From NCBI GenBank assembly GCA_964389135.1, contig CAYMDA010000012.1, forward strand, positions 8,033 to 72,032: 64,000 nucleotides of DNA, given 5' to 3'. Below the pieces are notes generated by a model. It was given only the letters and a program-made list of their open reading frames with translations. It was not told where the DNA came from and made no database searches. This DNA is from an uncultured Verrucomicrobiota bacterium. GTDB taxonomy: Bacteria; Verrucomicrobiota; Verrucomicrobiia; Limisphaerales; CAIMTB01. Below, in pieces: positions 14,167 through 59,472 of the stretch (its first letter is position 1; each line of letters begins with the position of its first letter). Position numbers and translations under genes: made by a program.

Positions 14167-15009
14167 GATGGGTACTGAGTGGGTTTCTCCCGCGGACAGC
14201 AGACGCTCGAACGGGGTGGCCCCGTTCGGCGCGCCTTTCGCGGGCAGGTGTTCTGAGGGACGTCGTGTTCGGGTGGGGCGAAAGGTGTGGCCGGCCGCGC
14301 CCGCGGCGCATCGGCCGGAGTCCGGCTGGCCTGACCGGCCCGCAGCGCCGCGTCTCCGCGCGCGTCGTTCACCCGGCGCCGGGCGGCCGGATGAATGCCC
14401 GGGGACGACACCGCGCACACTGATGAAAGCGGAGACGGGTCTGTCGGGAATCGAGCGGCGCGCCGGCGCCGGGACGGCCGCAGGCCGGCCGTGCATCCCG
14501 AATTGGGGGAGAGACAAGTCACATTGACTCAGTTGATTCGGGATGGCAGTTCAGACGAACCTGACATCCTGCCTGGCACGAAAACGCGGCCAGGCTCCCC
14601 GCGGGATCGACGTGCGATCCCGTGCATTCGCCGTCCGGCAGGTGTTCTCCCGCCGGGAGCGGTGGGCCATGGAACCAGACAGGCTTGCCGGACCGTGGGC
14701 GGCACGGGATGCCCCGCAGTCCGGGGCATTCCGGCCTGTGTAGGCATCGTGCCGGGCCCAGCTCATGCCTGCACGGCGGAGGGGTGGTCTGCCGCCGGTG
14801 CGCCGATGGTACCCGAGGGCGCCGAGGCTGATTTCTCGGTGCTACAAGCGCGGGAACATCTCCGACCGCAGCATGGCTTGCAAGCCTGATTCGGGGCATC
14901 GAGCCGGCGCTCCCATGCGCGATTCCACCCGGATTCGGGGGCGCCCGGGCTTCCGTTTCGCCCCCGGCCGGACCACCGTGGTTCCGTGCATCCATTCCTT
15001 TCCGAGGTG

Positions 15010-17691: not shown

Positions 17692-17873
17692 GGGCGCCGG
17701 AGGATCCCTGCATCCCGGGGCGGGGCAGGCGGCCGCGGGCCAGGGCCATGGCGCCCGAGCCGCAGCCCTGAAATGCCTTTTCCAGCGGATTCCCGGCGCA
17801 TAATGTGCCCGCTCTCGCGTGGTCTTCGGATTCCGGTGGCCGGCGTGAAGCGGGCGCATCGTTCCGCGTCGAT

Positions 17874-18878
17874 ATGTCAGAACGAATTCTCGTCATCGGC
17901 AGCAACTCCTTTTCGGGATCGAGTTTTGTCGCGCACGCGCTGGAGAAGGGCGCGGATGTGATCGGCGTGAGCCGGTCGCCCGAGCCGGCGACGGCGTTTC
18001 TTCCGTACAAGTGGAAGGAGGGCGCGGCGCGGCGGACGGGGACGTTCCGGTTCGAGCAGCTGGACCTCAACCATCACACCCGGGAGATTCTCGGCCTCGT
18101 GGAATCGTTCCGGCCGGCCTGGGTGGTCAACTTCGCGGCCCAGAGCATGGTCGCGGAGAGCTGGGAGCATCCGGAGCACTGGTACCAGACGAACGTCGTG
18201 GCCAACGTCCGCCTGCACGATGGACTGCGGCGGATGGATTTCCTGCGGAAGTACGTTCACGTGTCCACGCCCGAGGTGTACGGAAGCTGCGAGGGCAATG
18301 TCGCCGAGGACGCCCGCTACAACCCGAGCACGCCCTACGCGGCGTCGCGCGCCGCGTGTGACCTGCACCTGATGACGTTCTTCCGGAACTACCGTTTTCC
18401 GGTGGCGTTCACGCGCGCGGCGAACGTCTTCGGCCCGGGACAGCAGCTCTACCGGATCGTGCCGCGCACGATCCTCTACATCCTGATCGGGCGGAGGCTT
18501 CCGCTGCACGGCGGGGGGCGTTCCGTGCGTTCCTTCATCCACATCCGCGACGTGGCGGAGGGAACATTCCGCGTGGCGAAGGACGGCGAGCCGGGCGGGA
18601 TCTACCACCTGTCCACGCGGGAAACGCGGTCCATCCGGGAGGTGGTGGAGACCATCTGCCGGAGGATGAACGCGCGGTTCGAGGACGTGGTGGACGTCGT
18701 GGGAGACCGGCCGGGCAAGGACGCGGCCTACCTGCTCGACAGCACGAGGGCCCGGGAGCGGCTCGGGTGGCGCGATGAGATCCCGTTCGAGCAGGGGGTC
18801 GAGGAGACCATCCAGTGGCTCACCGCAAACCTGGAGGAGCTGCGGCAGCAACCTTTCGAGTATATTCACAAGCCCTGA
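17874..18878 (+). CDS. Extended SDR, NDP-sugar 4,6-dehydratase/epimerase-like (RmlB-like) with Tyr-x-x-x-Arg in place of Tyr-x-x-x-Lys
   Basis: Rossmann start ILVIGSNSFSGSSF, STPEVYG, and PYAASRAACD (compare RmlB YSASKAASD). First gene of the co-directional cluster. Confidence 0.75.
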   Translation: MSERILVIGSNSFSGSSFVAHALEKGADVIGVSRSPEPATAFLPYKWKEGAARRTGTFRFEQLDLNHHTREILGLVESFRPAWVVNFAAQSMVAESWEHPEHWYQTNVVANVRLHDGLRRMDFLRKYVHVSTPEVYGSCEGNVAEDARYNPSTPYAASRAACDLHLMTFFRNYRFPVAFTRAANVFGPGQQLYRIVPRTILYILIGRRLPLHGGGRSVRSFIHIRDVAEGTFRVAKDGEPGGIYHLSTRETRSIREVVETICRRMNARFEDVVDVVGDRPGKDAAYLLDSTRARERLGWRDEIPFEQGVEETIQWLTANLEELRQQPFEYIHKP

Positions 18879-18888
18879 AGGATCCCTG

Positions 18889-19923
18889 ATGACGCACGTA
18901 CTGATCACCGGCGGCTTCGGTTACGTGGGCAGCCGCCTGACCCCGCACCTGCTCGGACTCGGACACCGCGTCCGTGTGCTCGACGCGATGCTCTACACGC
19001 GCGCGGGGCTGGACGCCCTCGAGAAGGCCCCGGGGCTCGGGGACTGGCGTTCGCGGTTCGAGCTGGTCGAGGGCGACCTGCGGGACCCGGAGGTCGTGGA
19101 GCGCGCGGTGCGGGGGATCGACGCCGTCGTCCACCTCGCGGCGATCTCGAACGATCCGACCGGGGAGATCGACGAGGTCCTGACGCGCCAGGTCAACTTC
19201 GACGCGGTCGGGATGCTGATCGCGATGTGCAAGGCGGCCGGCGTGCGCCGGTTCGTCAACGCCTCGTCGAGCAGCGTGTTCGGAATCAAGAGCGAGACCG
19301 ACGTGACCGAGGAACTCGAGCCCGAGCCCATCACGGCCTACTCGAAATACAAGATGCTTTCCGAATGGCTCGTCGTGGCGGCGGCGTCCCGTGACTTCTG
19401 CGCGGTGAACGTCCGGCCGGCGACGATCTGCGGCTATTCGCCGCGGCAGCGGTTCGATCTCACGGTCAACAAGCTCACCGCGGACGCCATCCGCAAGCGC
19501 GTGATCACCGTGCACGGCGGCGAGCAGCGCCGCCCCAACGTGGGGATGACCGACATCATCCACCTGTACGCGCGCCTTCTCGAGATCGACCCCGCGCGCA
19601 TCCAGGGGCGGACGTTCAACTTCGGGTTCGAGAACCTGAAAGTGATCGAGATCGCGCGGCTGATCCAGTCCGAGCTCGCCGAACTCGGCGTCGAGATCCG
19701 GATCACCGACACGCTCGACCGCCGTGACTATCACATCTCCTCGCGCAGAATCCTCAACGAGCTCGATTACAAGCCGGTGAGCTCGATCCGCGCCGAGGTG
19801 GCGAATCTCCGGCGCGCGCTCGAGGGCGGCGCCTTCGCCGACATCGACGCGCCCGAGCACTACAACATGAAGTTCATGAAGATGGCGCGGAACCCGGCCG
19901 CGTACCGATTCTTCTCCCGCTGA
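18889..19923 (+). CDS. NAD-dependent epimerase/dehydratase (extended SDR)
   Basis: VLITGGFGYVGSRL, SSSSVFG, and catalytic YSKYK. Starts 10 nt after the previous stop. Confidence 0.8.
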   Translation: MTHVLITGGFGYVGSRLTPHLLGLGHRVRVLDAMLYTRAGLDALEKAPGLGDWRSRFELVEGDLRDPEVVERAVRGIDAVVHLAAISNDPTGEIDEVLTRQVNFDAVGMLIAMCKAAGVRRFVNASSSSVFGIKSETDVTEELEPEPITAYSKYKMLSEWLVVAAASRDFCAVNVRPATICGYSPRQRFDLTVNKLTADAIRKRVITVHGGEQRRPNVGMTDIIHLYARLLEIDPARIQGRTFNFGFENLKVIEIARLIQSELAELGVEIRITDTLDRRDYHISSRRILNELDYKPVSSIRAEVANLRRALEGGAFADIDAPEHYNMKFMKMARNPAAYRFFSR

Positions 19924-19939
19924 AGCCTGCAGGCGCGTC

Positions 19940-21484
19940 ATGGCTGCAGCCCTGTCGAAGATTCTCGCCTTCGAGGCCGTCCCGGCCGAGATGGACCGGC
20001 TCCGCGCCTCGGGGAGGCGGATCGTGCAGTCCCACGGGATCTTCGACCTGATGCATCCCGGGCACATCGCGCACCTCGAGGCGGCGCGGGCGCTGGGAGA
20101 CGTGCTCGTGGTGTCACTCACCCAGGATCCCTACGTGCAGAAGGGACCGGGACGCCCGTACTTCAACGAGACCCTGCGGGCGATGAGCCTCGCGGCGCTG
20201 GAGTGCGTCGATTACGTGGTGCCCGTGCCGTTCGCCGGCGCCGTGGAGGCCATCGGAGCGATCCGTCCCCATGTGTACTGCAAGGGCAAGGAGTACGAGG
20301 ATCCGGAGTTCGATGACACGGGCGGGCTGCAGGAGGAGATGCGCGCGGTCGAACGGGTCGGGGGGGAGTTGCGCTTCGTGGGCCCGATCAAGTTCAGCTC
20401 CACCCGGCTGCTGAACCTGTACTTCGAGCATCCCACCGCGCCGGTCGCGCAGTTCTGCAGCGACCTCGCACGGCGCTACACGCGCAAGGACCTCCGGGAG
20501 GCCGTGGAGAGCCTTGCCAGCCTGCGCGTGCTGGTGGTCGGCGAGACGATCTTCGACCGCTACGCGTCGGTGAAGGTGCAGGGGCTGACATCGAAGAACC
20601 GGATCCTCTCGGGCCGGTTTCTCTCCCGCGAGACCCACTGCGGGGGAGCGCTCGCCGCCCTGCGCCACGTGCGGCAGTTTGCACCGAACGCGCGCTTCCT
20701 CAGCCTTGTGGGGACGGAGCCATGGGTGGACGAGATCCTCCGCGCCGAACTGCCCGGGGCGGCGGACCTCGTGATCCGCGACGCGGCGGTGACGACGATC
20801 GTCAAGGAACGGTTCGTCGAACCCCGCCGCAACGGGGACGAGGTCAGCAAGCTGTTCGCGGTGAATTACCTCGACGCCGATCCTCCCGGCGTCGGCGTGC
20901 AGTCGATGCTCCGGGACCGCCTCGCGGCCGCCGCGAAGGAATGCGACGTCGTGATGGCCCTCGACTTCGGGCATGGACTCTTCCACGAGGAGATGCGGCG
21001 GACCCTCGAGGAGAGCGCCCCGTGCCTTGTCCTCAACTGCCAGACCAACAGTAACAATCACGGGTTCAACATCATCAACCGCCAGTACCGGCGCGCGGAC
21101 GCGTTCACCCTCGACGAGCAGGAACTCCTGCTTGCCGTCGGCCGCCGCCGGCTCGAGTTCGAAACCGAGCTCGCCGGGCTGAAGCGGCAGTTCGGAGCCT
21201 CCTACGCATGGCTGACCCGCGGACCGGTGCAGACGATCGGACTCGCCGACGGCGCGCCCGCGTGCGTGTGTCCCCCGCTCGAGCTCGAGGTCGTGGATCC
21301 CGTGGGCGCCGGCGACGCGTTCTTCTCCGTCGCGGGCCTCGCCGCCGCCCGGCGGCTGCCCATTGATCTCGCGACGTTCATGGGTCAATTGGCGGGAGCG
21401 CAGGCCGTGCGCATCGTCGGCAACGCGCAGCCGATCTCGAAGCAGATCCTCGTGAAGAGCGGCATGTCGCTTCTCAACCGCTGA
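19940..21484 (+). CDS. Bifunctional nucleotidyltransferase / PfkB sugar kinase (HldE/RfaE-like with swapped domain order)
   Basis: The N-terminal cytidylyltransferase-like domain (GIFDLMHPGHIAHLEAARALGDVLVVSLTQD...KGKEYED) resembles RfaE domain II. The C-terminal ribokinase/PfkB domain (VLVVGETIFDRY..., DPVGAGDAFFSVAG) resembles RfaE domain I. Confidence 0.8.
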   Translation: MAAALSKILAFEAVPAEMDRLRASGRRIVQSHGIFDLMHPGHIAHLEAARALGDVLVVSLTQDPYVQKGPGRPYFNETLRAMSLAALECVDYVVPVPFAGAVEAIGAIRPHVYCKGKEYEDPEFDDTGGLQEEMRAVERVGGELRFVGPIKFSSTRLLNLYFEHPTAPVAQFCSDLARRYTRKDLREAVESLASLRVLVVGETIFDRYASVKVQGLTSKNRILSGRFLSRETHCGGALAALRHVRQFAPNARFLSLVGTEPWVDEILRAELPGAADLVIRDAAVTTIVKERFVEPRRNGDEVSKLFAVNYLDADPPGVGVQSMLRDRLAAAAKECDVVMALDFGHGLFHEEMRRTLEESAPCLVLNCQTNSNNHGFNIINRQYRRADAFTLDEQELLLAVGRRRLEFETELAGLKRQFGASYAWLTRGPVQTIGLADGAPACVCPPLELEVVDPVGAGDAFFSVAGLAAARRLPIDLATFMGQLAGAQAVRIVGNAQPISKQILVKSGMSLLNR

Positions 21485-21492
21485 CGCATCGA

Positions 21493-22539
21493 ATGAAGAC
21501 CGTCGCCGCCATCCTCGTGAAACAGCGGGAACCCCTCGTCATCGACGAGGTGGAGGTGCCGCCGCTCGGGTACGGCCAGGTGCTCGTGGACATCCACGTG
21601 AGCCGCATCTGCGGTTCCCAGATCGGCGAGATCGACGGCGTGAAGGGACCGGATCGCCACCTGCCCCACCTTCTCGGCCACGAGGGTGGCGGCACGGTGC
21701 TGGAGGTCGGCCCCGAGGTCCGCCATGTCCGGCCCGGCGATCGCGTCGTGCTCCACTGGCGCCCCGGCCGCGGGATCGAGGCCCGCCCGCCGGTTTACGG
21801 CTGGAACGGGGCAAGGGTCAGCGCGGGCTTCGTGACCACCTTCAATCGCCTCGGCGTCATCTCCGAGAACCGCCTCACGCCCGTGCCCGCGGACACGGAC
21901 CTCGAGGTCTGCGCGCTGCTGGCCGACACGCTGACGACCGGCTTCGGCGTGATCCACAACGACGCGCGCGCCCGCATCGGCGAGTCCGTCGTGGTGATCG
22001 GCTGCGGCGGCATCGGTCTGGGCGTCGTGCTCGGCGCGCATCTCGCCGGAGCCCACCCGGTCATCGCCGTGGACCTGCACGACTGCAAGCTCGAGGTGGC
22101 GCGCTCGCATGGCGCGACGCACGCCATCCATGCCGGCAGGACCGACTTCGCCGCCGCGGCGCAGGAGATCCTCGGCGGCCGCGGGGCGGACATCGTCGTG
22201 GACGGCACCGGGAATCCGCAGGTCCTCGAGAAGGCCTTCGCGCTGACCTCGCCCTCCGGCCGCTGCATCGGCGTGGGCGTCATGCCGCATGACCGGACGC
22301 TTTCCATCAACACCCTGCCGCTTCACCTCGGGAAGGTCCTGCGCGGATCGCACGGCGGCGACAGCCGTCCCGCGGAGGACATCCCGCGCTACGTGCGGAT
22401 GATGCGCGACGGCCGCTTCGATCCCCGCGGCATGGTCTCGCACCGCGTGCGCCTCGAGGAGGTCAACGACGCCATCGCCCGCATGCGCGCGGGGGAGGTG
22501 GTGCACTGCATGATCCATTTCGGAGACGGCCGCCCATGA
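21493..22539 (+). CDS. Zinc-dependent medium-chain alcohol/polyol dehydrogenase
   Basis: SRICGSQ...LLGHEGGGTV (Zn ligands C/H/E) and Rossmann VVVIGCGGIGLG. ATGA overlap with the next gene. Confidence 0.85.
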   Translation: MKTVAAILVKQREPLVIDEVEVPPLGYGQVLVDIHVSRICGSQIGEIDGVKGPDRHLPHLLGHEGGGTVLEVGPEVRHVRPGDRVVLHWRPGRGIEARPPVYGWNGARVSAGFVTTFNRLGVISENRLTPVPADTDLEVCALLADTLTTGFGVIHNDARARIGESVVVIGCGGIGLGVVLGAHLAGAHPVIAVDLHDCKLEVARSHGATHAIHAGRTDFAAAAQEILGGRGADIVVDGTGNPQVLEKAFALTSPSGRCIGVGVMPHDRTLSINTLPLHLGKVLRGSHGGDSRPAEDIPRYVRMMRDGRFDPRGMVSHRVRLEEVNDAIARMRAGEVVHCMIHFGDGRP

Positions 22540-23366
22540 CACCGACCGTGGACGAACAGCAGATGGACCGGATCGCGCGCCGCCTGCGGCTGCGCCTCGT
22601 CGAGATGTCGCACGCGGCCGGCACGCCGCACCTCGGCTCCGCGCTGTCGTGCGTGGACATTCTCGTCGCGGCGTACTGGGGCGTGGTGCGCGTCGATCCC
22701 GCGCGCCCCGACGATCCGGAACGCGACCGCTTCATCCTGAGCAAGGGGCACGCGGCGACCGCGCTGTATGCGACCCTTGCGGAGCGCGGGTTCTTTCCGG
22801 CCGCGTGGCTCGACACCTTCGCGCAACATGGCTCGCGGCTGGCGGAACAGCCCGCGCCGCGCTGTGCGCCGGGAGTGGAACTGGCCACGGGCTCGCTCGG
22901 GCATGGATTGCCGGTCGGCGTCGGAATGGCCCTCGCCGGCCGCATTCAGAACCGGAAGCATCGCGTGTTCGTCTGCATGAGCGACGGCGAGTGCAACGAG
23001 GGCACCGTGTGGGAGGCGGCGCTCTTCGCGCCTGCGCAGCGGCTCGACCACCTCGCGGTGATCATCGATTACAACAAGTGGCAGGCGACCGGCCGCAGCG
23101 ACGAGATCATGTCCCTCCCCTCGCTCGCCGCGAAGTGGGCGGCGTTCGGATGGAACGCGGTGGAGCTGGACGGCCACGACCGCACCGCGCTCGTGAATGC
23201 CATGCGCGCGGTGCCGGACGGTTCCGGGCGTCCCGTGGCGATCATCGCGCACACCGTGAAAGGGAAGGGGATCTCCTTCATGGAGGACGACAACAACTGG
23301 CACTACCGGATCCCGAAGGCCGCCGAGGTGGAGGAGGCGCGCGCCGAACTGAACGTGGCCGGTTGA
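22536..23366 (+). CDS. Transketolase, N-terminal (TPP-binding) subunit
   Basis: GTPHLGSALSCVDIL, LSKGHAATALYA, GSLGHGLPVGVGMA, and SDGECNEGTVWEA (TPP/Mg motif). Confidence 0.9.
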   Translation: MTPTVDEQQMDRIARRLRLRLVEMSHAAGTPHLGSALSCVDILVAAYWGVVRVDPARPDDPERDRFILSKGHAATALYATLAERGFFPAAWLDTFAQHGSRLAEQPAPRCAPGVELATGSLGHGLPVGVGMALAGRIQNRKHRVFVCMSDGECNEGTVWEAALFAPAQRLDHLAVIIDYNKWQATGRSDEIMSLPSLAAKWAAFGWNAVELDGHDRTALVNAMRAVPDGSGRPVAIIAHTVKGKGISFMEDDNNWHYRIPKAAEVEEARAELNVAG

Positions 23367-23381
23367 GACGGAAGACTGCCC

Positions 23382-24323
23382 ATGCGCAACGCATTCGCCC
23401 GCCAGATCACCGAGCTTGCCTGCGAGGACGAGCGCATCGTCGTGCTGAGCGGTGACATCGGCAATCGCCTGTTCGACGACCTGAAGGGGCGCTGCCCCTC
23501 CCGCTTCTTCAACTGCGGCGTCGCCGAGGCGAACATGGTCGGCATGGCGGCCGGCATGGCCATGAGCGGTCTGCGGCCGGTCTGCTACACCATCACCCCG
23601 TTTTTGACCTACCGCTGCATGGAGCAGATCCGTGTGGACGTCTGCTACCACGACGTGCCGGTGGTGCTCGTGGGAACGGGGGCCGGACTCTCGTACGCCT
23701 CGCTCGGGGCCACCCATCATTCCTGCGAGGAGATGGGCATGCTGCGTCTGCTTCCGGGCCTCACGGTGCTCGCGCCGGGAGACGCCTGGGAAGTCCGCGC
23801 GGGGATCCGCGCGGCCGTGAGGCACCCCGGCCCGGTGTACATGCGCATCGGCAAGAAGGGGGAGCCGGATGTCCACGGGTCCGAGCCCGCGTTCGAGATC
23901 GGGCGCGCGATCCGGATCCGGGACGGCGGCGATGTCGCGCTGCTCGCGGCGGGAACCGTGCTCGGGGTGGCGCGCGATGCAGCGGCCGAGCTCGGAGGCC
24001 GCGGCCTCGCGGCGGCCGTTTACAGCTTCCACACGATCAAGCCCCTGGACGAGGCGACGCTCACGGAGGTGTTCCGGAGGCACCGCATCGTGGCCACGAT
24101 CGAGGAACACAGTGTCCTCGGCGGCCTGGGCGGGGCGGTCGCCGAGTGGCTTGCGGACTTCCCGGATCCGTCGGCCGCGCTTCTCCGGCTGGGCACGCGC
24201 GACGAGTTTCTCCACCTGACCTGCGAGCAGGAATCCGCACGGGAACACTTCGGCCTGACGCCGGGGGCGATCGCCGACCGGATCGAGGCCGCAGCCGCCG
24301 GTCCTCATGCGCATCGGCGTTGA
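23382..24323 (+). CDS. Transketolase, C-terminal (pyrimidine-binding) subunit
   Basis: FFNCGVAEANMVGMAAGMA, GATHHSCEEMGMLR, PGPVYMRIGK, FHTIKPLD. Confidence 0.9.
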   Translation: MRNAFARQITELACEDERIVVLSGDIGNRLFDDLKGRCPSRFFNCGVAEANMVGMAAGMAMSGLRPVCYTITPFLTYRCMEQIRVDVCYHDVPVVLVGTGAGLSYASLGATHHSCEEMGMLRLLPGLTVLAPGDAWEVRAGIRAAVRHPGPVYMRIGKKGEPDVHGSEPAFEIGRAIRIRDGGDVALLAAGTVLGVARDAAAELGGRGLAAAVYSFHTIKPLDEATLTEVFRRHRIVATIEEHSVLGGLGGAVAEWLADFPDPSAALLRLGTRDEFLHLTCEQESAREHFGLTPGAIADRIEAAAAGPHAHRR

Positions 24324-25968
24324 TTTCGACAACACAATCGTCTGCTACGACGCGCTGTTTCACCGGGTCGCGCGGGAGGGCGGCTGGATTGACGCGTCCG
24401 TGCCGGTGAACAAGACCGACGTGAGAAACCGCCTCCGCGCCGACGGACGCGAGGAGGTCTGGACCCGGATGCAGGGCGAGGTGTACGGGGCGCGAATGTC
24501 GGAGGCCGACCCGTTTCCCGGGGTGCTCGAGTTCTTTCGCGCGTGCCGCCGCGCGGGCGTCCCGGTCTCCATCATCAGCCATAAGACGCGCACCCCGATC
24601 CTCGGTCCCGCCCACGATCTTCATGCCGCCGCGATGGCGTGGCTGGAGGAACGCGGCTTCTTCGACCCGGCCGTGATCGGACTGGACCGCGCCGATGTGT
24701 CCTTCGAACAAACGCGGGAGGCCAAGCTCGCGCGGATCGCGCAGCGGGGGTGCACGCACTTCATCGATGATCTTCCCGAGTTCCTGCGCGAGCCCGCCTT
24801 TCCGCGCGGGGTGGAACGCCTTCTCTTTGATCCGGGAGGCGTGCACGGGGATGTGGAATTCCCGCGGGTCCGGAGCTGGGATGAGGCGCGGGGGAGGCTG
24901 GAGCTCGACGCGCTCGAGCCCGTGCCCCCGGAGGTGCGCGGGTTTCTCGTGCGCCTCGGTTTCTCGGGGGATGACTGGCGCCGCCTGAAGGGAGGCGCCA
25001 ACAACCGTGTTCACCACGTCCGGCTCGGGACGGAGGATTTCGTGGTGAAGTCCTACTTCAGGCATCCGGCGGACACGCGGGATCGGTTCCGCGCGGAACG
25101 CGCCTTCTACACGTGGGTCATGGAACGCGGAATCGATCGCACGCCTCGGCCGGTGGCCTGGGATGAGGCCGGCCGGCTGGGAGTCTTTCACCTCGTCCGC
25201 GGACGCAGGCTGGCCGCGGCCGAGGTGACCTCGGAACGCGTCGACGAGGCGGCCGCGTTCGTCCGTGAACTGAACGACGGACGCGAGGCGGCATGGGAAC
25301 GGGGGATCCCCGAGGCTTCGGAAGCATGCTTCAGCCTGGGCGCCCACGCGGCGTGCATCGACCGCCGCGTCGCGCGCCTCGAAGGAATGGAGCGCCGTTC
25401 CGCGATCCACGGGGAGGCCTTGCGATTCGTCACCGAGGCGCTCGCGCCCGCATGGAAGCGCGTCCGCCGTCGCCTGGAGGAATCGAGCGACCGCGAACTC
25501 ACGCCGGCCGAACGATGCCTGTCGCCGTCCGACTTCGGTTTCCACAACGCCGTCTGCGCGGCCGACGGGCGTCTGCGGTTCCTCGACTTCGAGTACGCGG
25601 GCTGGGATGACCCCGCGAAGCTCGTCTGCGACTTTTTCCTGCAGCCGCAGGTTCCCGTCGGGCTGGAGCACTGGGATCGGTTCATCAGCGCCGTGGGGGA
25701 TGCGGTGGGCTGGGGGGAGCGGCTCAGGGAACGGGTGGAGACGCTGCTGCCGGCCTGCCGGGTCAAGTGGTGCTGCATCCTGCTCAATGAATTCCTGCGC
25801 GGCGAGGACGCGCGGCGGGAGTTTGCGAGGGGCGGATCCTCCCCGGTGGAGGAGGGGAATGCCGACCGGGAGTCGCGCAGGCGGGCGCAGCTCGAGAAGG
25901 CCCGGCGCGCGCTGGATGCGCTTGTCGGCGATCCAGAAACGTTGAGCCGCGGCGGCGGATGCGATTGA
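24307..25968 (+). CDS. Fusion protein: N-terminal HAD-like phosphatase plus C-terminal APH/choline-kinase-like phosphotransferase
   Basis: HAD motif I IGVDFDNTIV. Kinase catalytic loop LSPSDFGFHNAV and metal-binding FLDFEYAGWDDP. Overlaps the transketolase C-subunit stop by 17 nt. Confidence 0.75.
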   Translation: MRIGVDFDNTIVCYDALFHRVAREGGWIDASVPVNKTDVRNRLRADGREEVWTRMQGEVYGARMSEADPFPGVLEFFRACRRAGVPVSIISHKTRTPILGPAHDLHAAAMAWLEERGFFDPAVIGLDRADVSFEQTREAKLARIAQRGCTHFIDDLPEFLREPAFPRGVERLLFDPGGVHGDVEFPRVRSWDEARGRLELDALEPVPPEVRGFLVRLGFSGDDWRRLKGGANNRVHHVRLGTEDFVVKSYFRHPADTRDRFRAERAFYTWVMERGIDRTPRPVAWDEAGRLGVFHLVRGRRLAAAEVTSERVDEAAAFVRELNDGREAAWERGIPEASEACFSLGAHAACIDRRVARLEGMERRSAIHGEALRFVTEALAPAWKRVRRRLEESSDRELTPAERCLSPSDFGFHNAVCAADGRLRFLDFEYAGWDDPAKLVCDFFLQPQVPVGLEHWDRFISAVGDAVGWGERLRERVETLLPACRVKWCCILLNEFLRGEDARREFARGGSSPVEEGNADRESRRRAQLEKARRALDALVGDPETLSRGGGCD

Positions 25969-26009
25969 CTTGCCCGCTGTTCGTCCGGTGGGCGGACCCT
26001 GCAATCACC

Positions 26010-26672
26010 ATGGCATTGATCGACTTCGTCAGTGTCCTGCACAAGCGGACCCGGCGCGACTACCTCGCGCGCGTGAACGAGTTCCCGAAGGCCCGGGCCG
26101 CCGAGGTCGCGAAGCGGTTCGGGCAGGAGTACTGGGACGGCGACCGGCGCTTCGGCTACGGGGGCATGCGCTATGACGGCCGCTGGCGGGTTGTGGCCGA
26201 CGCGATGGCGAAGCACTACGGCCTGAAGGCGGGCGACCGCGTGCTCGACGTCGGGTGCGGGAAGGGCTTCCTGCTCTACGACCTGACGCAGGCCGTGCCC
26301 GGGCTCGAGGTCCGCGGGCTGGACATCTCGCGGTACGCCATCGAGAACGCGAAGGAGGAGGTGCGCCCGTTCCTTGACGTGGGCCACGCCAGCGAGCTGC
26401 CCTACGAGGGCGGGAGTTTTGATCTCGTCATCTCGATCAACACGCTCCACAACCTTTACTGCCATGAGCTCGATCGTGCGCTGCGCGAGATCCAGCGCGT
26501 GGGGCGGCGCCACCGCTACATCTGCGTGGAGTCATACCGGAACGAGGATGAGAAGGTGAACCTGCTCTACTGGCAGCTCACCTGCGAGTCGTTCTTCACG
26601 CCGCGCGAGTGGGAGTGGTGGTTCCAGTGGTGCGGCTACGTCGGGGACTGGTCGTTCATCTTCTTCGAATGA
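26010..26672 (+). CDS. Class I SAM-dependent methyltransferase
   Basis: Motif I VLDVGCGKGFLL, then FDLVISINTLHN. ATG at 26010 is preferred; the ORF opens at 25959. Confidence 0.8.
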   Translation: MALIDFVSVLHKRTRRDYLARVNEFPKARAAEVAKRFGQEYWDGDRRFGYGGMRYDGRWRVVADAMAKHYGLKAGDRVLDVGCGKGFLLYDLTQAVPGLEVRGLDISRYAIENAKEEVRPFLDVGHASELPYEGGSFDLVISINTLHNLYCHELDRALREIQRVGRRHRYICVESYRNEDEKVNLLYWQLTCESFFTPREWEWWFQWCGYVGDWSFIFFE

Positions 26673-26673
26673 A

Positions 26674-27390
26674 ATGGAACCCGGACGGACCGACGCGGGA
26701 GGGATGCATCCCATGACCGAAAAGACCAAGGAACCCCAGTACCAGTTCCTGCTGGACCTCGAGAAGGAGGGGCTCGAGACGCTCGGCCTCATGAGCAGCC
26801 AGGTATGGCGCGAGGATCCGCGCCGGTTGCTGTTCGTGCTCTCCCGGTACAAGTTCGTCGCCAAGATGTGCGTCGGCCTCAGGCGCGTTCTCGAGGTCGG
26901 CTGCGCGGACGGCTTCGGCACCCGGATCGTGCGCCAGGAGGTGCCCGAGGTTGTCGCGGTGGATTTCGATCCGGTGTTCATCCGCCGCAATCTGGAACGG
27001 CCTCCCGGCTCATGGAACGTGGACTTCCGCGTGCACGACATGCTCGCGGGCCCGCTGCGCGAGGATTTTGACGCCGTGTACGCCGTGGACGTGATCGAGC
27101 ACATCCCCGCGGACCGGGAGCTGGAGTTCGTCGGCAACATGGTCGCGTCGCTGAAGCCGGAAGGGTTCGCGCTGCTCGGCACGCCCTCGCTCGAGTCGCA
27201 GGCGTACGCCTCCGCGCCGAGCCGGGAGGGACACGTCAACTGCAAGACCGCGAAGGACCTGCGCGCATTGATGGCGCGCTTCTTTCACAACGTGTTTGTG
27301 TTCTCCATGAACGACGAAGTCGTGCACACGGGCTATCCCGCGATGGCCCACTACCTCTGGGCGCTCGGCGCTCACCGGAAACCGGCGTGA
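26674..27390 (+). CDS. Class I SAM-dependent methyltransferase
   Basis: Motif I VLEVGCADGFGT, then FDAVYAVDVIEHI. Start is ATG 26674, with 26704 or 26713 as alternatives. Confidence 0.8.
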   Translation: MEPGRTDAGGMHPMTEKTKEPQYQFLLDLEKEGLETLGLMSSQVWREDPRRLLFVLSRYKFVAKMCVGLRRVLEVGCADGFGTRIVRQEVPEVVAVDFDPVFIRRNLERPPGSWNVDFRVHDMLAGPLREDFDAVYAVDVIEHIPADRELEFVGNMVASLKPEGFALLGTPSLESQAYASAPSREGHVNCKTAKDLRALMARFFHNVFVFSMNDEVVHTGYPAMAHYLWALGAHRKPA

Positions 27391-28262
27391 GCGATCAAGT
27401 GAACTCCGGTCTTCTCGTGGTGGGGGCCGACAGCGTCATCGGCCGCGCGCTGGTCGATCAGGCCCTCCGGGACGGGCTCGCGGTGACCGGAACGACGCGG
27501 CGCGGATCCTCCAGCGCGCGGGCGTCGGTCCGCCTCAACCTCCTTGACTCGCTCGAGAAGTGGGAGCCTCCCGAGGGCATCGGCTCGGCGATCCTCTGCG
27601 CGGGCGTGACGAGCCTCGAGGCCTGCCGTCGCGACCCGGTTGCCACCCGGCAGATCAACGTCACGCAGACCGTGCGCCTCGCCCGGCATCTCGCCGACGC
27701 CGGCGTCTTTGTCACGTTCCTCTCCACGAACCTCGTCTTCGACGGCGCCCGCCCGCACGAGGCGGCGGATGCCCCCACGGCACCGCGCACCGAGTATGGC
27801 CGGCAGAAGGTCGCCGTGGAGGAGGCGCTCGGGGAAGTCGCCGACGCCGGCCATGCGATCGTGCGCATGACGAAGGTCGTGCACCCGGAATGGCCGCTGC
27901 TCACCGCATGGGTGGATCAGCTTCGCGAGGGCGCCGAGGTGCGCGCGTTCCAGGACATGCCCTGCTCGCCGATCCCGCTGCCGATGGTCGTCCGGGGATT
28001 GATCCGCATCGCCCGCGACCGCCGGCCGGGGGTGTGGCAGTTCTCGGCGGACTCGGATGTCACCTACGCCGAGATCGCGCGTCACGTTGCCGCGCGGATG
28101 GGCCGCGAGGGGCTCGTCCGCGAGGTCTCCTACCGGAGCGCCGGTGACGTCGAACATGTACCGGCGCACACGACCCTCGACGCGGCACGCGCGCGGGAGG
28201 AACTCGGACTGACGTTTCCCCCGCCGCTCGCGGCGATCGATGCCGTGCTGCCGGCGGTTTGA
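27387..28262 (+). CDS. SDR-family NDP-sugar reductase (RmlD-like)
   Basis: LLVVGADSVIGRAL and catalytic YGRQK. About 290 aa, as for dTDP-4-dehydrorhamnose reductases. GTGA overlap with the upstream methyltransferase. Confidence 0.7.
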   Translation: MSDQVNSGLLVVGADSVIGRALVDQALRDGLAVTGTTRRGSSSARASVRLNLLDSLEKWEPPEGIGSAILCAGVTSLEACRRDPVATRQINVTQTVRLARHLADAGVFVTFLSTNLVFDGARPHEAADAPTAPRTEYGRQKVAVEEALGEVADAGHAIVRMTKVVHPEWPLLTAWVDQLREGAEVRAFQDMPCSPIPLPMVVRGLIRIARDRRPGVWQFSADSDVTYAEIARHVAARMGREGLVREVSYRSAGDVEHVPAHTTLDAARAREELGLTFPPPLAAIDAVLPAV

Positions 28263-28351
28263 GGCCCCCGCGCGGCGGGCGAGCCTCCCCCGCGGCTCCG
28301 CGGCCGGTCCCGCACCGGGAACGCGACGAACCGCCCCCGTGCAGACGCGGG

Positions 28352-29179
28352 TCAGGGCGGGAGAGCCGAGGTGTCGTCCGCCGGCAACGCCGAGGGGGGA
28401 TGCGTGAAGGCTGCCAGCGACGCGCGAATGCCGGTCTCGAGCGCGGCGACGCGCGTCTCGAGGATGAAATCGGACGGCGCCTCCAGCGTGTAGCTCAGGC
28501 GCGTCTTGTTTTGGATCAGGTAGAATGCCTCCGCCCAGTCCGTGCGCGACGCCGGGTCGGGATTCGGGCGGATGATGCCTCCGGCCGCCTCCCGGCCGTC
28601 GATCAGCGGGGATTCGTCGATCGGGCAGACGGACCGGACGGCTTCGACCATGACTTCCGCGAGCGAGGGCTGCCCGGCGGGATTCAGCTCGTACACGTAG
28701 AAGCCGGCCGCCTCCCAGTCCTCGTGGAGACAGAAGGCGATGTCGAACATGGGCTGGCGCTGGAGCCATTCCACATGAACGCGCGCCTCGGGAGTGCGGA
28801 GGTGATGGTAATCCCGGTTGAGATCGATGCCGTCACCCGTCTCCCTCGAATTGCGCCGAAATCCGGTCGGGTTGAGGCACGGGCAGCACCAGACCCATGC
28901 CGCCTCGGGAAAGGCGTTCTGCTCGAACAGCCGCCGGATCGCGAGCGGGCCCGCGGGTTCATCACCGTGAATCCCCGCGGAGAGATAAATCCGGGGCGCC
29001 CACGAACAATGGACCACGGGCGGGCGGTGAAGGGCCGGGAACTGGATGTGCCCGGCGGCGCGGAGGATTTCGACGTTCCATCCGAGCCGGCCGGCCGCCT
29101 CCACGATGTCACGCAGCACCTGATCGATCTCGATGGTGTCGCCGAAGTAGCCCCCGACATTACGGCCCAGCCGTGTCAT
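28352..29179 (-). CDS. M14-family zinc carboxypeptidase-like protein (MpaA/AstE-AspA-like)
   Basis: Zn motif SAGIHGDEPAG, NPTGF, DLNRDY, and a later H/E (CLHEDWE). Confidence 0.7.
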   Translation of the reverse strand: MTRLGRNVGGYFGDTIEIDQVLRDIVEAAGRLGWNVEILRAAGHIQFPALHRPPVVHCSWAPRIYLSAGIHGDEPAGPLAIRRLFEQNAFPEAAWVWCCPCLNPTGFRRNSRETGDGIDLNRDYHHLRTPEARVHVEWLQRQPMFDIAFCLHEDWEAAGFYVYELNPAGQPSLAEVMVEAVRSVCPIDESPLIDGREAAGGIIRPNPDPASRTDWAEAFYLIQNKTRLSYTLEAPSDFILETRVAALETGIRASLAAFTHPPSALPADDTSALPP

Positions 29180-29340
29180 GCCCCGAATGCTAACGTCGGA
29201 TCACCGCGGGCTGGAAGCGGCGACGGGCCGTCCCGTCCTTCAGGGAAGCCGGGCGCGATCCCGCGGGTGGCGGCATGGAGCCTCCCGAAGCGGGTCTTGC
29301 GTGACGGGTTCCGCGCCGGAGAGGGTTCGCGCCGCGCGCG

Positions 29341-30729
29341 ATGCTGTTTCACACGACCGAGTTTCTGCTGTTCCTGGTCGCGTTCACGCTGGCGTACGCG
29401 CTCGTTCGGGAGCGGCTGCGCTGGCGGAACCTGCTCGTCGTGGCGGCGAGCCATGTGTTCTACGGCTGGTGGGACTGGCGCTTCCTCGGCCTGCTTCTCT
29501 TCTCGAGCTGGCTGGATTACCGGGCCGGGATCGGCATGGCGCGGGCCCGTCACGAGGCCGGGCGGCGGCGCTGGCTCGTGGTCAGCGTCGCGGGCAACCT
29601 CGGCGTGCTCTGCTTCTTCAAGTACTTCGGGTTCTTCATGGAATCCTTCCACGCGCTGCTCGGCCGGCTGGGGGTGAGCGAGCCGTCGTGGACGTGGAAC
29701 ATCATCCTGCCGGTCGGGATATCGTTCTACACGTTCCAGACCCTCAGCTACTCGATCGACGTGTATCGCCGCCGGATCGAACCGACACACGACTGGACGG
29801 CGTTCTTCGCGTACGTGGCGTTCTTTCCCCAGCTCGTCGCGGGACCGATCGAGCGCGGATCCCACCTTCTGCCGCAGTTTCTCACGACCCGCAGGATTCG
29901 GGCCGAGGACCTCGAGGAAGGCGCATGGCTCGTGACGTGGGGCTTCTTCAAGAAGGTGGTGGTGGCGGATCAGCTCGCGCCCTTCGCGGACCTCGCGTTC
30001 GGGGACGGGCCACGGGTTGCCGCGGTGGTCCTGCTCGGCGTGCTCGCGTTCGCGGGGCAGATCTACGGGGATTTCTCCGGCTACTCCGACATCGCGCGGG
30101 GACTCGCCCGATGGTTCGGCTTCGATCTCATGCAGAACTTCAACCTGCCGTACACGGCGGGAAGCGTGCGCGAGTTCTGGCAGCGATGGCACATCAGCCT
30201 GTCCACATGGCTGCGGGATTATCTCTACATCCCGATGGGCGGGAGCCGGTCCGGTGAGTGGCGCACCCGGCGGAACCTGATGATCACCATGGTTCTCGGG
30301 GGACTGTGGCATGGCGCGGCATGGACGTTCGTGCTGTGGGGCGCATGGCACGGGATCGCACTCGCCGTGCACCGGGCGTGGTCGTCGCGCGCGCGCCTGC
30401 CGCGGTGGGCCGGCTGGATCCTCACGATGCTCGTCGTCGGCTACGGATGGATGCTCTTCCGGGCGGAAAGCCTTGCGGACCTGGCCGCGCTGCATGCCGC
30501 GCTGCTGGACTGGAGCGCGCCCGGCTGGATCGGCGGCTTCGCCCTCGGCGTCGCGGCAAGATGGATGCCGCTCATCCTTGTCCAGGCATGGCAACTGCGG
30601 AAGGGCGACCTGCTCGCACCGATGCGCGCGCACTGGGCGGTCCGCGCGCCCCTCATGGGCCTGTTCCTTGTCGCCATCGCGGCGTACTGGCAGCAGGACC
30701 GCACGCCGTTCATCTATTTTCAGTTCTGA
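29341..30729 (+). CDS. MBOAT-family O-acyltransferase (AlgI/DltB-like)
   Basis: Multi-TM protein. [43 protein letters not shown], and conserved His in GGLWHGAAW. Confidence 0.9.
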
Positions 30730-30731
30730 GC

Positions 30732-31730
30732 ATGGAAGCGCGCAGCCATGTGTGCGAGTTCAAGGCCGCCGACGTCCTTCGGAACACGGCGTCGCTCGCG
30801 GGCGGCGTCATCGTGATCACGCTGCTGCTCCACGTGCTCGCGGCGTCCGGCTGGCTGCCGGCACCGGCGCCCGCCGACCTGGAACGCACCATCCTGAGAA
30901 CCAAGGCGCGGCTCGCGATGTCGGGCGGCGCGGCGGACATTCTCCTCGCCGGGGATTCGTCCTGCATGATGGATGCCGACGCCGTCGCGCTCGGCGAGCA
31001 GCTCGGGAAGTCCGTCCTGAACCTCGGCACGCTGAGCTTTCTCGGCGTCGATTCGCACGCCGCCCTGGTGAAGGCGCACGCGCGGGCGCATCCGGCCTCG
31101 AACGTCACGGTGGTGCTGCTGATGCATCCAGACGCGCTGCGGCGTCCATCCGGCGTGGCCCGGCACGAAGACTACCTCCGCGCGCTTCTGGAGGGACGGA
31201 TGGAGGACGCGTGGACCGCTCCGTGGCTGCGCGTGCTGGGCGGCGGAATCCTGAAGGAGCGCGTTCTGCAGTCGTGGATCCCCGTGATGATGCCGGGTGC
31301 GTTCGGGGCGAGATACGGGGATCAGTTCTCCATCGCGCGGAGCCTTCGAATGCAGAGGGGCAGCCTCCAGGATCCCGGCCGGTTCGATCCGGCCGTCGAG
31401 GCGGGAAGCCGGGAGGTCCGGCTGGCCGGAACGCTGGAGGGCGCGGCGCGGCGTTTTCGTGCCTCGCTGCCCGGATCGGCGCGTCTGGTGGCGGGAATCA
31501 CGCCGGTGCCCGGGTCGCTGGCGGCATCAGACCACGTCGAGCGCACGCGGGCGCTGCTCCGGGAGTGGGGGGAATGGCTCGGCGCGGACGCGACGCTGGA
31601 CGAGCTGCCGATGGTGTGGCCCGACGATCGGTTCGCCAGCCGCGCGCACCTGAATCCCGACGGCGCGCGGGAGTGGACACGGGCGCTCGCGCGGGCGCTG
31701 GCGAGTCACGGCCCGCGCCCCGCCCGTTGA
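30732..31730 (+). CDS. Membrane-anchored partner of the MBOAT, GDS-motif (SGNH/AlgJ/DltD-like) protein
   Basis: Starts 2 nt after the MBOAT stop. N-terminal TM ([16 protein letters not shown]). [12 protein letters not shown] resembles SGNH block I. The rest has no motif I can name. Confidence 0.55.
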
Positions 31731-31918
31731 GTAACGGCATTCCATCCCGTGTCCCGGCGGCCCATCCGGCGCGACCCGACGCCGGGAATGCCGGAAACGA
31801 CGGTCTCCGGCGGGAGGATTCGCGCTTGAGCCCGGGCGCGAGGAGGGCGCATATCCCTTTCGTGAGGGAGGAAGCACGAAGGCCACTGGCCAGAGACCCT
31901 CAGTGCGCACGGGGTGTC

Positions 31919-32569
31919 GTGGAGGGCCGGCGTTCGAATCGGGCGTTCACGCTGATCGAGCTGCTGGTCGTCATTGCGATCATCGCGATCCTTGCGAGTC
32001 TTCTGCTGCCGGCGCTCGCCAGGGCGAAGGAGAAGGGCAGGGCGACGGTGTGCCTGAACAACCTGAGGCAGACCGGAGTCGCCGCCCTGATGTATGCGGA
32101 AGACAACGGCGGGCACATTCCGATCGACGCGCCCCTTCTCAAGGGAGTCACCTGGGGCAGCATGCTGGCGTCCAACGCCGCGGTCCGGCCGTTTGATCTC
32201 TTCGTCTGCCCGAGCTACAGGCCCTTTCGGTTCACGAACTGGCTCACGATCTACGGCGTCCGCCTGGATCCGCCGGCCTCGGTCACGCGGGGCGCCTTCC
32301 GCGAGAACCTGATCGTGGACGCGGTCGAGCATCCCGCGGAGTACCTTCACATCGCGGACACAACGAGCCGGGGGAGGGAGGGCTTCGGTGCGCAGCAGTT
32401 CTATTTCTTTCGCGCGGAGAGCGAGAAGGAGGTGCACGGACGTCATGGCCGCGTGGCGAACGGCTTCCTGCTGGACGGCCACGTGGAGGGATTGAACGCG
32501 CACCGGCTCGAGCGCCTCGGGATCATCGGCTTGTTCGAGCAGGACACCGTGCCCGGCTATTTCCCCTGA
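31919..32569 (+). CDS. Prepilin-type N-terminal cleavage/methylation domain protein with H-X9-DG motif (DUF1559-like pseudopilin)
   Basis: [32 protein letters not shown] after a short basic leader. H-X9-DG is [12 protein letters not shown] at 32444-32479. There is no in-frame ATG, so GTG 31919 gives a 9-aa leader and GTG 31862 is an alternative. Confidence 0.8.
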
Positions 32570-34527: not shown

Positions 34528-34748
34528 GGGCGATTCGGGTGCTTCGGTTTGGGGTTCGCCTTTCACGAACCGGAGAGGCCGCCGTCGGCGGGTGTCGCAG
34601 GTCCGCGGGCGTTCATCGCGTGCGGGGATCCCCAGGGCTCGGCAACGTTTGAGATTGTAGCGCGACCGGCCGGTGTTACTCTCCGGGAAAGCCGGTGAAG
34701 ACCGGTTCGTGCGTAACGAGTCCGGCGCCGGCGAACCCCCGTTTATCT

Positions 34749-59336: not shown

Positions 59337-59472
59337 GGGAGGTCCACGGGTCCGGCGGGAGCCTGCGAAATCCCGCGCGGAATACCAGACCTCCTTCGCG
59401 GCGCGCCCGCCCGGCCCATGAACTCCCCGCGCCACCCCGCTGGTTTGCCCCGCGCGCCTCCAGGCGGCCGCC

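Follow-up and report, generated by a model that had tools for sequence, protein, structure and literature searches.

The window, by which we mean the whole 64,000-nucleotide stretch of DNA that was analysed (contig CAYMDA010000012.1 of an uncultured Verrucomicrobiota bacterium, G+C ~68%), contains a cassette of ten enzyme genes at positions 17874-28262, all on the + strand. These ten genes are one operon, which is conserved in many uncultured Verrucomicrobiota. The encoded enzymes are of the nucleotide-sugar type, and we examine here which sugar they may produce.

An initial annotation of this DNA had counted eleven genes. Ten are given both by the open reading frame (ORF) listing and by gene calls made independently on public contigs of identical sequence (L084-L086; L-numbers are locus labels), and the annotation's own list also names ten. 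Its description of a nucleotide-sugar-type cassette that cannot be mapped to a characterised pathway has held up: none of the ten proteins reaches a curated NCBIfam equivalog cut-off, and a full-text literature search found no characterised homologous cassette with this gene set. A match to the kosinostatin genome was discarded, the transketolase being mentioned there only as a housekeeping marker. The domain assignments were all confirmed by Pfam and NCBIfam, that of the HAD half of g7 weakly by Pfam. The features are as follows.

17692-17873, + strand: upstream intergenic region of 182 nt, presumed from its position only to hold the operon promoter
17874-18878, + strand: g1, 334 aa, extended short-chain dehydrogenase/reductase (SDR), Pfam GDP_Man_Dehyd (4.6e-47)/Epimerase
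18889-19923, + strand: g2, 344 aa, extended SDR, Epimerase/3Beta_HSD
19940-21484, + strand: g3, 514 aa, fusion of CTP_transf_like (N-terminal) and PfkB (C-terminal)
21493-22539, + strand: g4, 348 aa, medium-chain zinc-dependent alcohol dehydrogenase (Zn-ADH), Pfam ADH_N and ADH_zinc_N
22536-23366, + strand: g5, 276 aa, N-terminal (PP-domain) subunit of a split transketolase-like, thiamine diphosphate (ThDP)-dependent enzyme, Transketolase_N (1.5e-36)
23382-24323, + strand: g6, 313 aa, C-terminal (Pyr and C domain) subunit of the same split enzyme, Transket_pyr/Transketolase_C
24307-25968, + strand: g7, 553 aa, fusion of a divergent HAD phosphatase domain (N-terminal) and an APH-fold kinase
25959 or 26010 to 26672, + strand: g8, class I S-adenosylmethionine (SAM) methyltransferase, Methyltransf_31/11/25
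26674 or 26713 to 27390, + strand: g9, second class I SAM methyltransferase, Methyltransf_23/25 (gene caller start 26713)
27387-28262, + strand: g10, 291 aa, RmlD-like reductase, RmlD_sub_bind (8.2e-24)

The co-directional arrangement, the tight junctions and the uncertain start of the first methyltransferase, all stated in the initial annotation, agree with the ORF coordinates. Intergenic gaps within the operon measure 10, 16, 8 and 15 nt. The g4/g5 junction is an ATGA overlap and the g9/g10 junction a GTGA overlap, while g6 and g7 overlap by 17 nt. Depending on the start of g8, the g7/g8 junction is a 10-nt overlap (25959) or a 41-nt gap (26010), and the second start is favoured because orthologues of g8 are ~220 aa long. 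The codon-position GC (GC3 of 0.84-0.92 for each gene) indicates that all ten are real genes.

At the 3′ end the operon faces a convergent AstE/AspA-like gene (28352-29179, minus strand). A + strand ORF at 28259-29677 (472 aa) was rejected as a gene: it shadows the AstE/AspA-like gene on the opposite strand, matches no Pfam family and does not appear in the independent calls. The promoter search found no sigma-70-like site and the terminator-like matches all lie inside coding sequence, which has no bearing on co-transcription. Rfam, run over the whole window at gathering thresholds, gave zero matches.

Conservation of the cassette

Among 8,000 scored candidates, 1,933 relatives of g3 were found at E<=1e-3. 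The best 120 share 59-73% identity with g3, and the few named ones among them are Verrucomicrobiota or Pedosphaera. In a scan of one genome per species, 241 genomes encode a g3 relative. The locus comparisons presented here rest on the best 80 of these 241 loci, nearly all of which come from Verrucomicrobiota metagenome-assembled genomes (MAGs), a few being labelled Omnitrophota or Planctomycetes. The gene order of the window is repeated on two long contigs, L001 and L003. Between lineages the gene order is shuffled and the gene set is retained, which indicates that the cassette is one functional unit.

Core counts were taken from the 28 loci with full flanks, by a tblastn matrix and ORF clustering. 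This neighbourhood search bears out the co-conservation which the initial annotation had put forward as a check: g2, g3, g4 and the ThDP enzyme are each present in 28/28 loci. The ThDP enzyme is a transketolase only in 25 of them, an E1 alpha/beta pair only in two, and both in one. Next come g8 (25/28), g1 (22/28, at >=33% identity) and the g7 kinase (19/28), followed by g9 (10/28) and g10 (4/28). Thus g8 is part of the conserved core, and g9 and g10 are accessory. The neighbouring aminotransferase, AstE-like and MBOAT genes were rejected as cassette members, as they are missing from related loci save for the aminotransferase in one close relative (L001/L007, same contig).

The variability of g9 and g10 would also be expected if independent sugar-nucleotide or housekeeping modules merely lay side by side and did not form one pathway. 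Modules of RfbF and a C-methyltransferase, for a second CDP-hexose, do stand beside the cassette in some loci. Such a juxtaposition is nevertheless very improbable in our view, given that the four invariant members stay together despite rearranged order across Verrucomicrobiota, Omnitrophota and Planctomycetota, and that overlapping start and stop codons in the window suggest translational coupling.

Recurrent neighbours in sister loci

The window contains no GmhA, glycosyltransferase, flippase or polymerase, in accordance with the initial annotation, and no GmhB. This does not extend to the relatives, where GmhA-like, GT2, Wzy-like and RfaH/UpxY-type genes adjoin the cassette. In 30 loci a gene for a GmhA-like SIS isomerase immediately precedes g1 or g3 (23/51 where the upstream sequence is long enough). 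The isomerase reaches 111 bits with the gmhA model, whose cut-off is 209. This frequent position ties the pathway of the cassette to sedoheptulose-7-phosphate, and it strengthens the activation logic of HldE/GmhB style that had been suggested from the sequence of the window.

The polysaccharide markers found beside the cassette in relatives comprise the RfaH/UpxY-type antiterminator, a Wzy-like membrane protein, GT2 glycosyltransferases, RfbF and GmhB. Because of these markers the cassette can be regarded as a sugar-nucleotide module of surface-polysaccharide loci. In the source genome it sits apart from transferases.

Enzymes that form carbon–carbon bonds are also recurrent. Pairs resembling the alpha and beta subunits of pyruvate dehydrogenase E1 occur in nine loci; they take the place of the transketolase in L070, L043, L080 and L038, and accompany it in L064 and L076. 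C-methyltransferases of the TylC3 type are found in 15 loci, and there are also B12-binding radical SAM proteins and one ThDP enzyme of the YerE/acetohydroxyacid synthase (AHAS) type. By tblastn, none of these carbon–carbon bond enzymes lies in the window, and neither do the GmhA-like isomerase, the L-2-hydroxyglutarate oxidase described below or the polysaccharide-locus markers.

In some sister loci such enzymes are stacked in single operons (L064:12489-21523, L076:5250-14281, L080:12504-21519 and L070:8496-17352), from MAGs labelled Omnitrophota, Clostridia and Chthoniobacterales. The stacked genes include E1 alpha/beta pairs, a second transketolase pair, a B12-radical SAM protein, a TylC3-type C-methyltransferase and the YerE/AHAS-type ThDP enzyme. 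This composition suggests heavily branched sugars.

The activation enzyme

The g3 protein combines a nucleotidyltransferase like HldE domain II (aa ~19-155) with a PfkB kinase like HldE domain I (aa ~190-497), which reverses the domain order of HldE. Scores against the respective models are 93.9 bits for TIGR02199 (HldE domain II; 7.5e-27, cut-off 181.5), 69.2 bits for TIGR02198 (HldE domain I; 3.3e-19, cut-off 345) and 101.7 bits for NF008454 (cut-off 521), all below threshold. The motifs HGxFDxxHPGH, FSST and GAGDAF vary little or not at all among 82 sequences, and the catalytic motifs of HldE are thereby retained. The best PDB match is ethanolamine-phosphate cytidylyltransferase (ECT; 6.3e-17), accompanied by HldC-like and HldA-type proteins; among the latter matches is a heptose kinase, 4e84, at 1.9e-6.

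Heptose nucleotidyltransferases which are promiscuous for the nucleotide carry the hallmark (F/L)XXGRSTT, as in STTR5 (PMC11573728). In g3 the residue pair before SST is KF, as opposed to GR in this hallmark, and the nucleotide used by g3 is therefore not predictable.

The short-chain dehydrogenases

Catalysis by RmlB depends on a Thr-Asp-Glu triplet and a Tyr-xxx-Lys motif, and its NAD site contains GxxGxxG. All three signatures are altered in g1, which reads STPE in 55/55 sequences, YAASR in 53/55 (Arg for the Lys of YxxxK) and GSNSFSG for GxxGxxG. Essentially all orthologues thus lack the catalytic Asp (TDE to TPE) and the central Gly of the Rossmann motif. The homology implied by the label 'RmlB-like' stands (215.4 bits against TIGR01181, cut-off 365; best PDB match 2hun, 1.6e-47), but a 4,6-dehydratase role is not to be assumed. 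With some uncertainty, g1 may be regarded as a putative tailoring dehydratase or reductase. The RmlD-like g10 scores 91.3 bits against TIGR01214 (RmlD), for which the cut-off is 224.

The Ser and YxxxK triad of g2 is invariant among its orthologues, and its best PDB match is 6vo6 (E 1.6e-28, ~30% identity). We propose g2 as a putative NDP-heptose (nucleoside diphosphate heptose) C4 dehydrogenase of the Cj1427 type. Cj1427 follows a ping-pong mechanism in which the bound NADH is reoxidised by alpha-ketoglutarate, yielding L-2-hydroxyglutarate (PMC10680097). If this by-product had to be recycled in the present case, a linked L-2-hydroxyglutarate oxidase (LhgO) would be expected. A bona fide LhgO (551 bits, cut-off 299) adjoins the cassette in 12 loci, among them L019:5963-7162, L072:7230-8396 and L082:8147-9388. 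In 8/12 it directly precedes the GmhA-like gene or g1 in the same orientation. The lineages concerned include distant ones, namely Spartobacteria, a Planctomycetales MAG and a Verrucomicrobiae contig of 52% identity. A linked LhgO may be a candidate genomic marker for sugar dehydrogenases with a Cj1427-type ping-pong mechanism.

The HAD-kinase fusion

The AlphaFold2 model of g7 has a pLDDT of 91.4. The HAD domain (aa 1-~195) is matched weakly by Pfam (E 6e-4) and carries an invariant DFDNT (DxDxT) motif. It has no NCBIfam match at E<=1, and a 12-sequence profile of it against the PDB reached a best E of 0.37. The kinase (aa ~205-545) matches Pfam APH at 1.8e-7. Foldseek places it near choline/ethanolamine kinases, LicA and APH(9)/antibiotic kinases with equal weight (E ~1e-9). 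In L003 the HAD and kinase halves are separate genes.

The kinase fold bears on a pathway to a CDP-polyol or phospho-alcohol, with the logic of TarJ/TarI or LicA/LicC. Here the Zn-ADH would reduce a ketose made by the transketolase to an alditol or its phosphate, the HAD-kinase would remove and re-add phosphate, and the CDP-alcohol formed by the cytidylyltransferase-like domain would be transferred as a phosphodiester substituent. Choline/ethanolamine kinases and LicA are indeed the nearest folds of the kinase, the g3 nucleotidyltransferase has the cytidylyltransferase fold with ECT as best PDB match, and TarJ-type reductases are Zn-ADHs. However, the g3 domain scores 93.9 bits for HldE domain II as opposed to 34 bits for the glycerol-3-phosphate cytidylyltransferase (TagD-type) model, so that the initial annotation's analogy to CDP-alditol synthesis finds no specific support. 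Moreover, three extended SDRs of the NDP-pyranose type, the GmhA-like gene and LhgO would be left without a role, and the kinase is missing in 9/28 full loci while the SDR g2 is never missing. We consider this alternative improbable.

The split transketolase-like enzyme and the zinc-dependent dehydrogenase

The closest PDB entries are 6yak for g5 (4e-70) and 6yaj for g6 (7e-57), the split transketolase of Carboxydothermus hydrogenoformans. Against NF004559 the two subunits score 268.8 bits (g5) and 173.9 bits (g6), below the cut-off of 488. The match to E1_dh reaches only 2.8e-10; the pair is transketolase-like and not of the YerE or E1 alpha/beta kind. The SDGEC-NEG/DYN and His motifs of g5 are invariant in 58 sequences. 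Together, g5 and g6 keep SDGECNEG...DYN, PHLG, GH, WH and THH, and with them the ThDP/Mg motifs and the catalytic histidines.

The substrate pocket is a different matter. In canonical transketolases (E. coli, yeast), His461, Asp469, Ser385 and Arg520 hold the substrate phosphate and the C2 hydroxyl of the acceptor. Compared with 6yaj, g6 shows the replacement of 'THAGLTVGEDGASHQ' by TG(A/S)GLSYASLG(A/S)THH, of DLSKST by DIGNRL and of GRS by GKK, in each case in 53/53 orthologues. Put in E. coli numbering, His461 has become Gly, Asp469 Leu, Ser385 Arg and Arg520 Lys. The canonical set of sugar-phosphate and acceptor residues is kept in none of the 53.

How far this pocket extends was seen when 1.84 billion cluster representatives were searched exhaustively. 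In the best 150 representatives (50%-identity clusters at 35-81% identity to g6; P0241-P0390), the His461 position is Gly in 133 and Asp469 is retained in five; the Gly, Leu and Arg found in g6 at the positions of His461, Asp469 and Ser385 recur in most of the 150. Judged by sequence, g6 is a member of a large clade of split transketolase-like proteins for which we found no link to a characterised enzyme. The altered pocket and the substitution by E1 in some loci favour a C2 transfer onto a nucleotide-linked carbonyl over the building of a ketose phosphate. We know of no transketolase-type enzyme that installs two-carbon branches on 4-keto sugars.

The PDB matches of g4 span only aa 114-344 and its loop is free of cysteines; on these grounds g4 appears to be without the structural-zinc lobe. 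We propose for it a putative role in reducing (or oxidising) the carbonyl on which the ThDP enzyme acts.

A different course, close to the reading of the initial annotation and with a logic like that of lincomycin biosynthesis, would build the skeleton at the level of sugar phosphates. From ordinary aldose phosphates the transketolase would make sedoheptulose-7-phosphate or octulose-8-phosphate, the GmhA-like, PfkB, HAD and nucleotidyltransferase enzymes would activate it, and the SDRs and methyltransferases would deoxygenate and decorate the resulting NDP-heptose or NDP-octose. All four activation functions are encoded in or beside the cassette, and the nearest structures of g5 and g6, whose ThDP and His motifs are kept, are those of a genuine split transketolase. 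On the other hand, the equivalents of His461 and Asp469 are Gly and Leu throughout the orthologues, E1 alpha/beta enzymes, which replace the transketolase in some loci, are unable to make ketose phosphates from ketol donors, and the universally co-occurring Zn-ADH would have no role. Considered together, these points make the sugar-phosphate course rather unlikely, though a better candidate than the CDP-polyol pathway. The idea that the transketolase simply supplies sedoheptulose-7-phosphate was judged less likely, because its pocket substitutions are invariant and E1 enzymes can stand in for it. As for the C2 ketol transfer foreseen in the initial annotation, the enzyme family and its ThDP motifs stand, whereas the non-canonical pocket and the E1 substitutes disfavour its use for ketose-phosphate building.

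Proposed pathway

Our preferred, though tentative reading, to which we give a probability of about 0.45, is that the cassette makes a nucleotide-activated, methylated heptose that is carbon-extended or branched, and that other enzymes place this sugar in a surface polysaccharide.

The pathway would comprise activation, C4 oxidation, two-carbon transfer and tailoring. First, a GmhA-like isomerase encoded outside the window would convert sedoheptulose-7-phosphate into heptose 7-phosphate. The PfkB domain of g3 would then phosphorylate this product at the anomeric position. After removal of the distal phosphate, either by the HAD domain of g7 or by a housekeeping GmhB, the nucleotidyltransferase domain of g3 would form the NDP-heptose. 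In the fifth step, g2 would oxidise C4 in the manner of Cj1427, its bound NADH being reoxidised by alpha-ketoglutarate. Subsequently, g5/g6 could move a glycolaldehyde unit from a ketol donor to a carbonyl of the nucleotide sugar, which would result in a C-4 branch or in chain extension. The new ketone would be reduced by g4; alternatively, g4 might first create a terminal aldehyde which is then extended. Methylation by g8 and g9 would follow, and g1 and g10 would contribute further tailoring of the dehydratase or reductase type. Lastly, the choline-kinase-fold domain of g7 may phosphorylate some hydroxyl.

A more specific version of the tentative reading is bolder, and we think it unlikely to be right in full. 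According to it, the transketolase-like clade traded its sugar-phosphate pocket for one that accepts nucleotide-linked keto- or aldehydo-sugars. Transfer of glycolaldehyde onto an NDP-4-keto-heptose, followed by the Zn-ADH and O-methylation, would produce a 1,2-dihydroxyethyl-branched or chain-extended C9 sugar that is undescribed in bacterial glycans. The oxidation would run on the cycling of alpha-ketoglutarate and L-2-hydroxyglutarate, which a dedicated LhgO would complete in some genomes.

Several points weigh against the heptose reading. We infer every substrate and the order of the steps; the observations themselves concern which genes are present and conserved together, their domain families and their motif states. 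The entry into heptose metabolism relies on genes elsewhere in the genome, since the window is without GmhA, GmhB and a glycosyltransferase. The HAD half of g7 has, in the AlphaFold2 model, a helical insert or cap after strand 1, as opposed to the capless GmhB. Its assignment to GmhB or another HAD subfamily was rejected in the absence of a family match, and it does not classify as HAD-IIIA. The fold predicted for the g7 kinase would suit a phospho-alcohol pathway equally well, and the scheme leaves this kinase without a defined role. As to the C4 oxidation, the match 6vo6 is only presumably Cj1427 itself, and LhgO is linked in only 12/81 loci. If g1 and g2 both acted at C4 they would be partly redundant. 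A C-4 branch would leave no 4-keto group for the RmlD-like reductase, g10; this gene, however, is accessory. Finally, chain extension and branching are indistinguishable here, because transketolase and E1 enzymes normally attack aldehydes.

Elsewhere in the window

Downstream of the operon, an MBOAT-family O-acyltransferase (29341-30729) is followed in the next frame by an ORF without Pfam match (~30702-31730). The two could be an AlgI/AlgJ-like pair for glycan O-acylation. At 31802-32569 lies a protein of a kind typical for Verrucomicrobiota and Planctomycetota, with a prepilin-type N-terminal methylation motif and a weak match to DUF1559; the ORF listed at 30311-32569 probably over-extends its true start. 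A 1,602-aa fusion at 34695-39503 (POR_N, PFOR_II, POR, 4Fe-4S and TPP_enzyme_C) is a large fused 2-oxoacid:ferredoxin oxidoreductase, and adjoining it are cytochrome bd oxidase subunits I and II (40368-42678, minus strand).

The other end of the window encodes a T2SSE ATPase of the type II secretion/type IV pilus type (7-1449) and a secretin (3620-5719); two ORFs without annotation separate these genes. The minus strand at 10576-14517 encodes a 1,313-aa protein in which Y_Y_Y and Laminin_G_3 domains occur, and several long + strand ORFs over the same interval match nothing in Pfam and probably represent shadows. Furthermore, a sulfatase and a second protein, whose C-terminal domain is of the GH65 type (minus strand, 57858-59435 and 51201-53390, respectively), lie near a DeoR regulator (59473-60258). 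This set of genes fits a glycan-degrading lifestyle.

Significance

Verrucomicrobiota are abundant in soil, freshwater and gut. To our knowledge, almost nothing is known of their surface glycans. The presence of the cassette in at least 241 species-level genomes suggests that its product is probably a common component of the envelope. If the transketolase-like enzyme does act on a nucleotide sugar, the transketolase family would gain a new type of reaction, and biocatalysis a new way of making branched or chain-extended sugars. It would also give a function to many split 'transketolase' genes with the same pocket, as in 133/150 of the nearest representatives. The linkage to LhgO, for its part, would carry the ping-pong mechanism of Cj1427 beyond Campylobacter and provide a genomic marker for it. 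In addition, the nucleotide choice of g3 is immunologically relevant, as ALPK1, an innate immune sensor of mammals, is activated by NDP-heptoses (PMC11573728).

The building blocks are of known kinds. What is new is that a reversed HldE-like fusion is combined with a Cj1427-like SDR, a non-canonical transketolase and a Zn-ADH, and the altered transketolase pocket is new as well.

Comparison with known systems

The split transketolase of Carboxydothermus (6yak/6yaj) shares with g5/g6 its two-subunit architecture, the ThDP motifs and the catalytic histidines (196-240 bits). Canonical and split transketolases differ from g6 in the pocket, where g6 carries Gly, Leu, Arg and Lys.

The logic of the cassette resembles that of lincomycin octose synthesis (LmbR, LmbN, LmbP, LmbK and LmbO), which likewise uses a skeleton enzyme, a GmhA-like isomerase, a kinase, a HAD phosphatase, a nucleotidyltransferase and SDR tailoring. 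That pathway employs a transaldolase, a GHMP kinase and an enzyme of the NTP_transferase fold, and its proteins are not known to be homologous to those of the cassette beyond the superfamily level. For CDP-alditol synthesis (TarJ/TarI), no model of an alditol-phosphate cytidylyltransferase paired with a ketose-phosphate reductase is among the NCBIfam matches.

Activation of ADP- and GDP-heptose proceeds through GmhA, HldE or HldA/HldC, and GmhB, and enzymes of NDP-heptose biosynthesis are described from several kingdoms (PMC11573728). The cassette shares with this route the PfkB heptose-kinase-like and heptose nucleotidyltransferase-like domains and a phosphatase, as well as an isomerase-like gene in relatives. 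In contrast, its domain order is reversed, its scores are far below the equivalog cut-offs and its phosphatase is not of the GmhB type.

Capsular heptose tailoring in Campylobacter jejuni combines Cj1427 with epimerases and C4 reductases (PMC10680097). SDR partners of the reductase type are likewise found in the cassette, and the LhgO linked in relatives matches the alpha-ketoglutarate/L-2-hydroxyglutarate ping-pong of Cj1427. The cassette is without cupin epimerases and adds a ThDP enzyme, a Zn-ADH, methyltransferases and a kinase. Furthermore, C. jejuni follows the GDP-alpha-heptose route (HddA/HddC), whereas the cassette encodes an HldE-like fusion.

Two-carbon branches are introduced on 4-keto sugars by YerE (yersiniose) and by the E1-like pairs AviB1/AviB2 and Pau11/Pau12, followed by ketoreduction (Pau7) (PMC4753412). 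As in these systems, a ThDP enzyme is encoded in the cassette together with putative NDP-4-keto-sugar-forming enzymes and a dehydrogenase, and the E1 alpha/beta-like and YerE-like genes at the same position in sister loci recall them further. The cassette enzyme is transketolase-like, so that the transferred unit would be glycolaldehyde rather than acetyl, and its reductase is a Zn-ADH and not an aldo-keto reductase. The sugar, too, would differ, being probably a heptose as opposed to a 3,6-dideoxy- or 2,6-dideoxyhexose. By analogy, the two-carbon branching catalysed by YerE or by AviB1/B2 and Pau11/12 would be the closest precedent for the mechanism proposed here.

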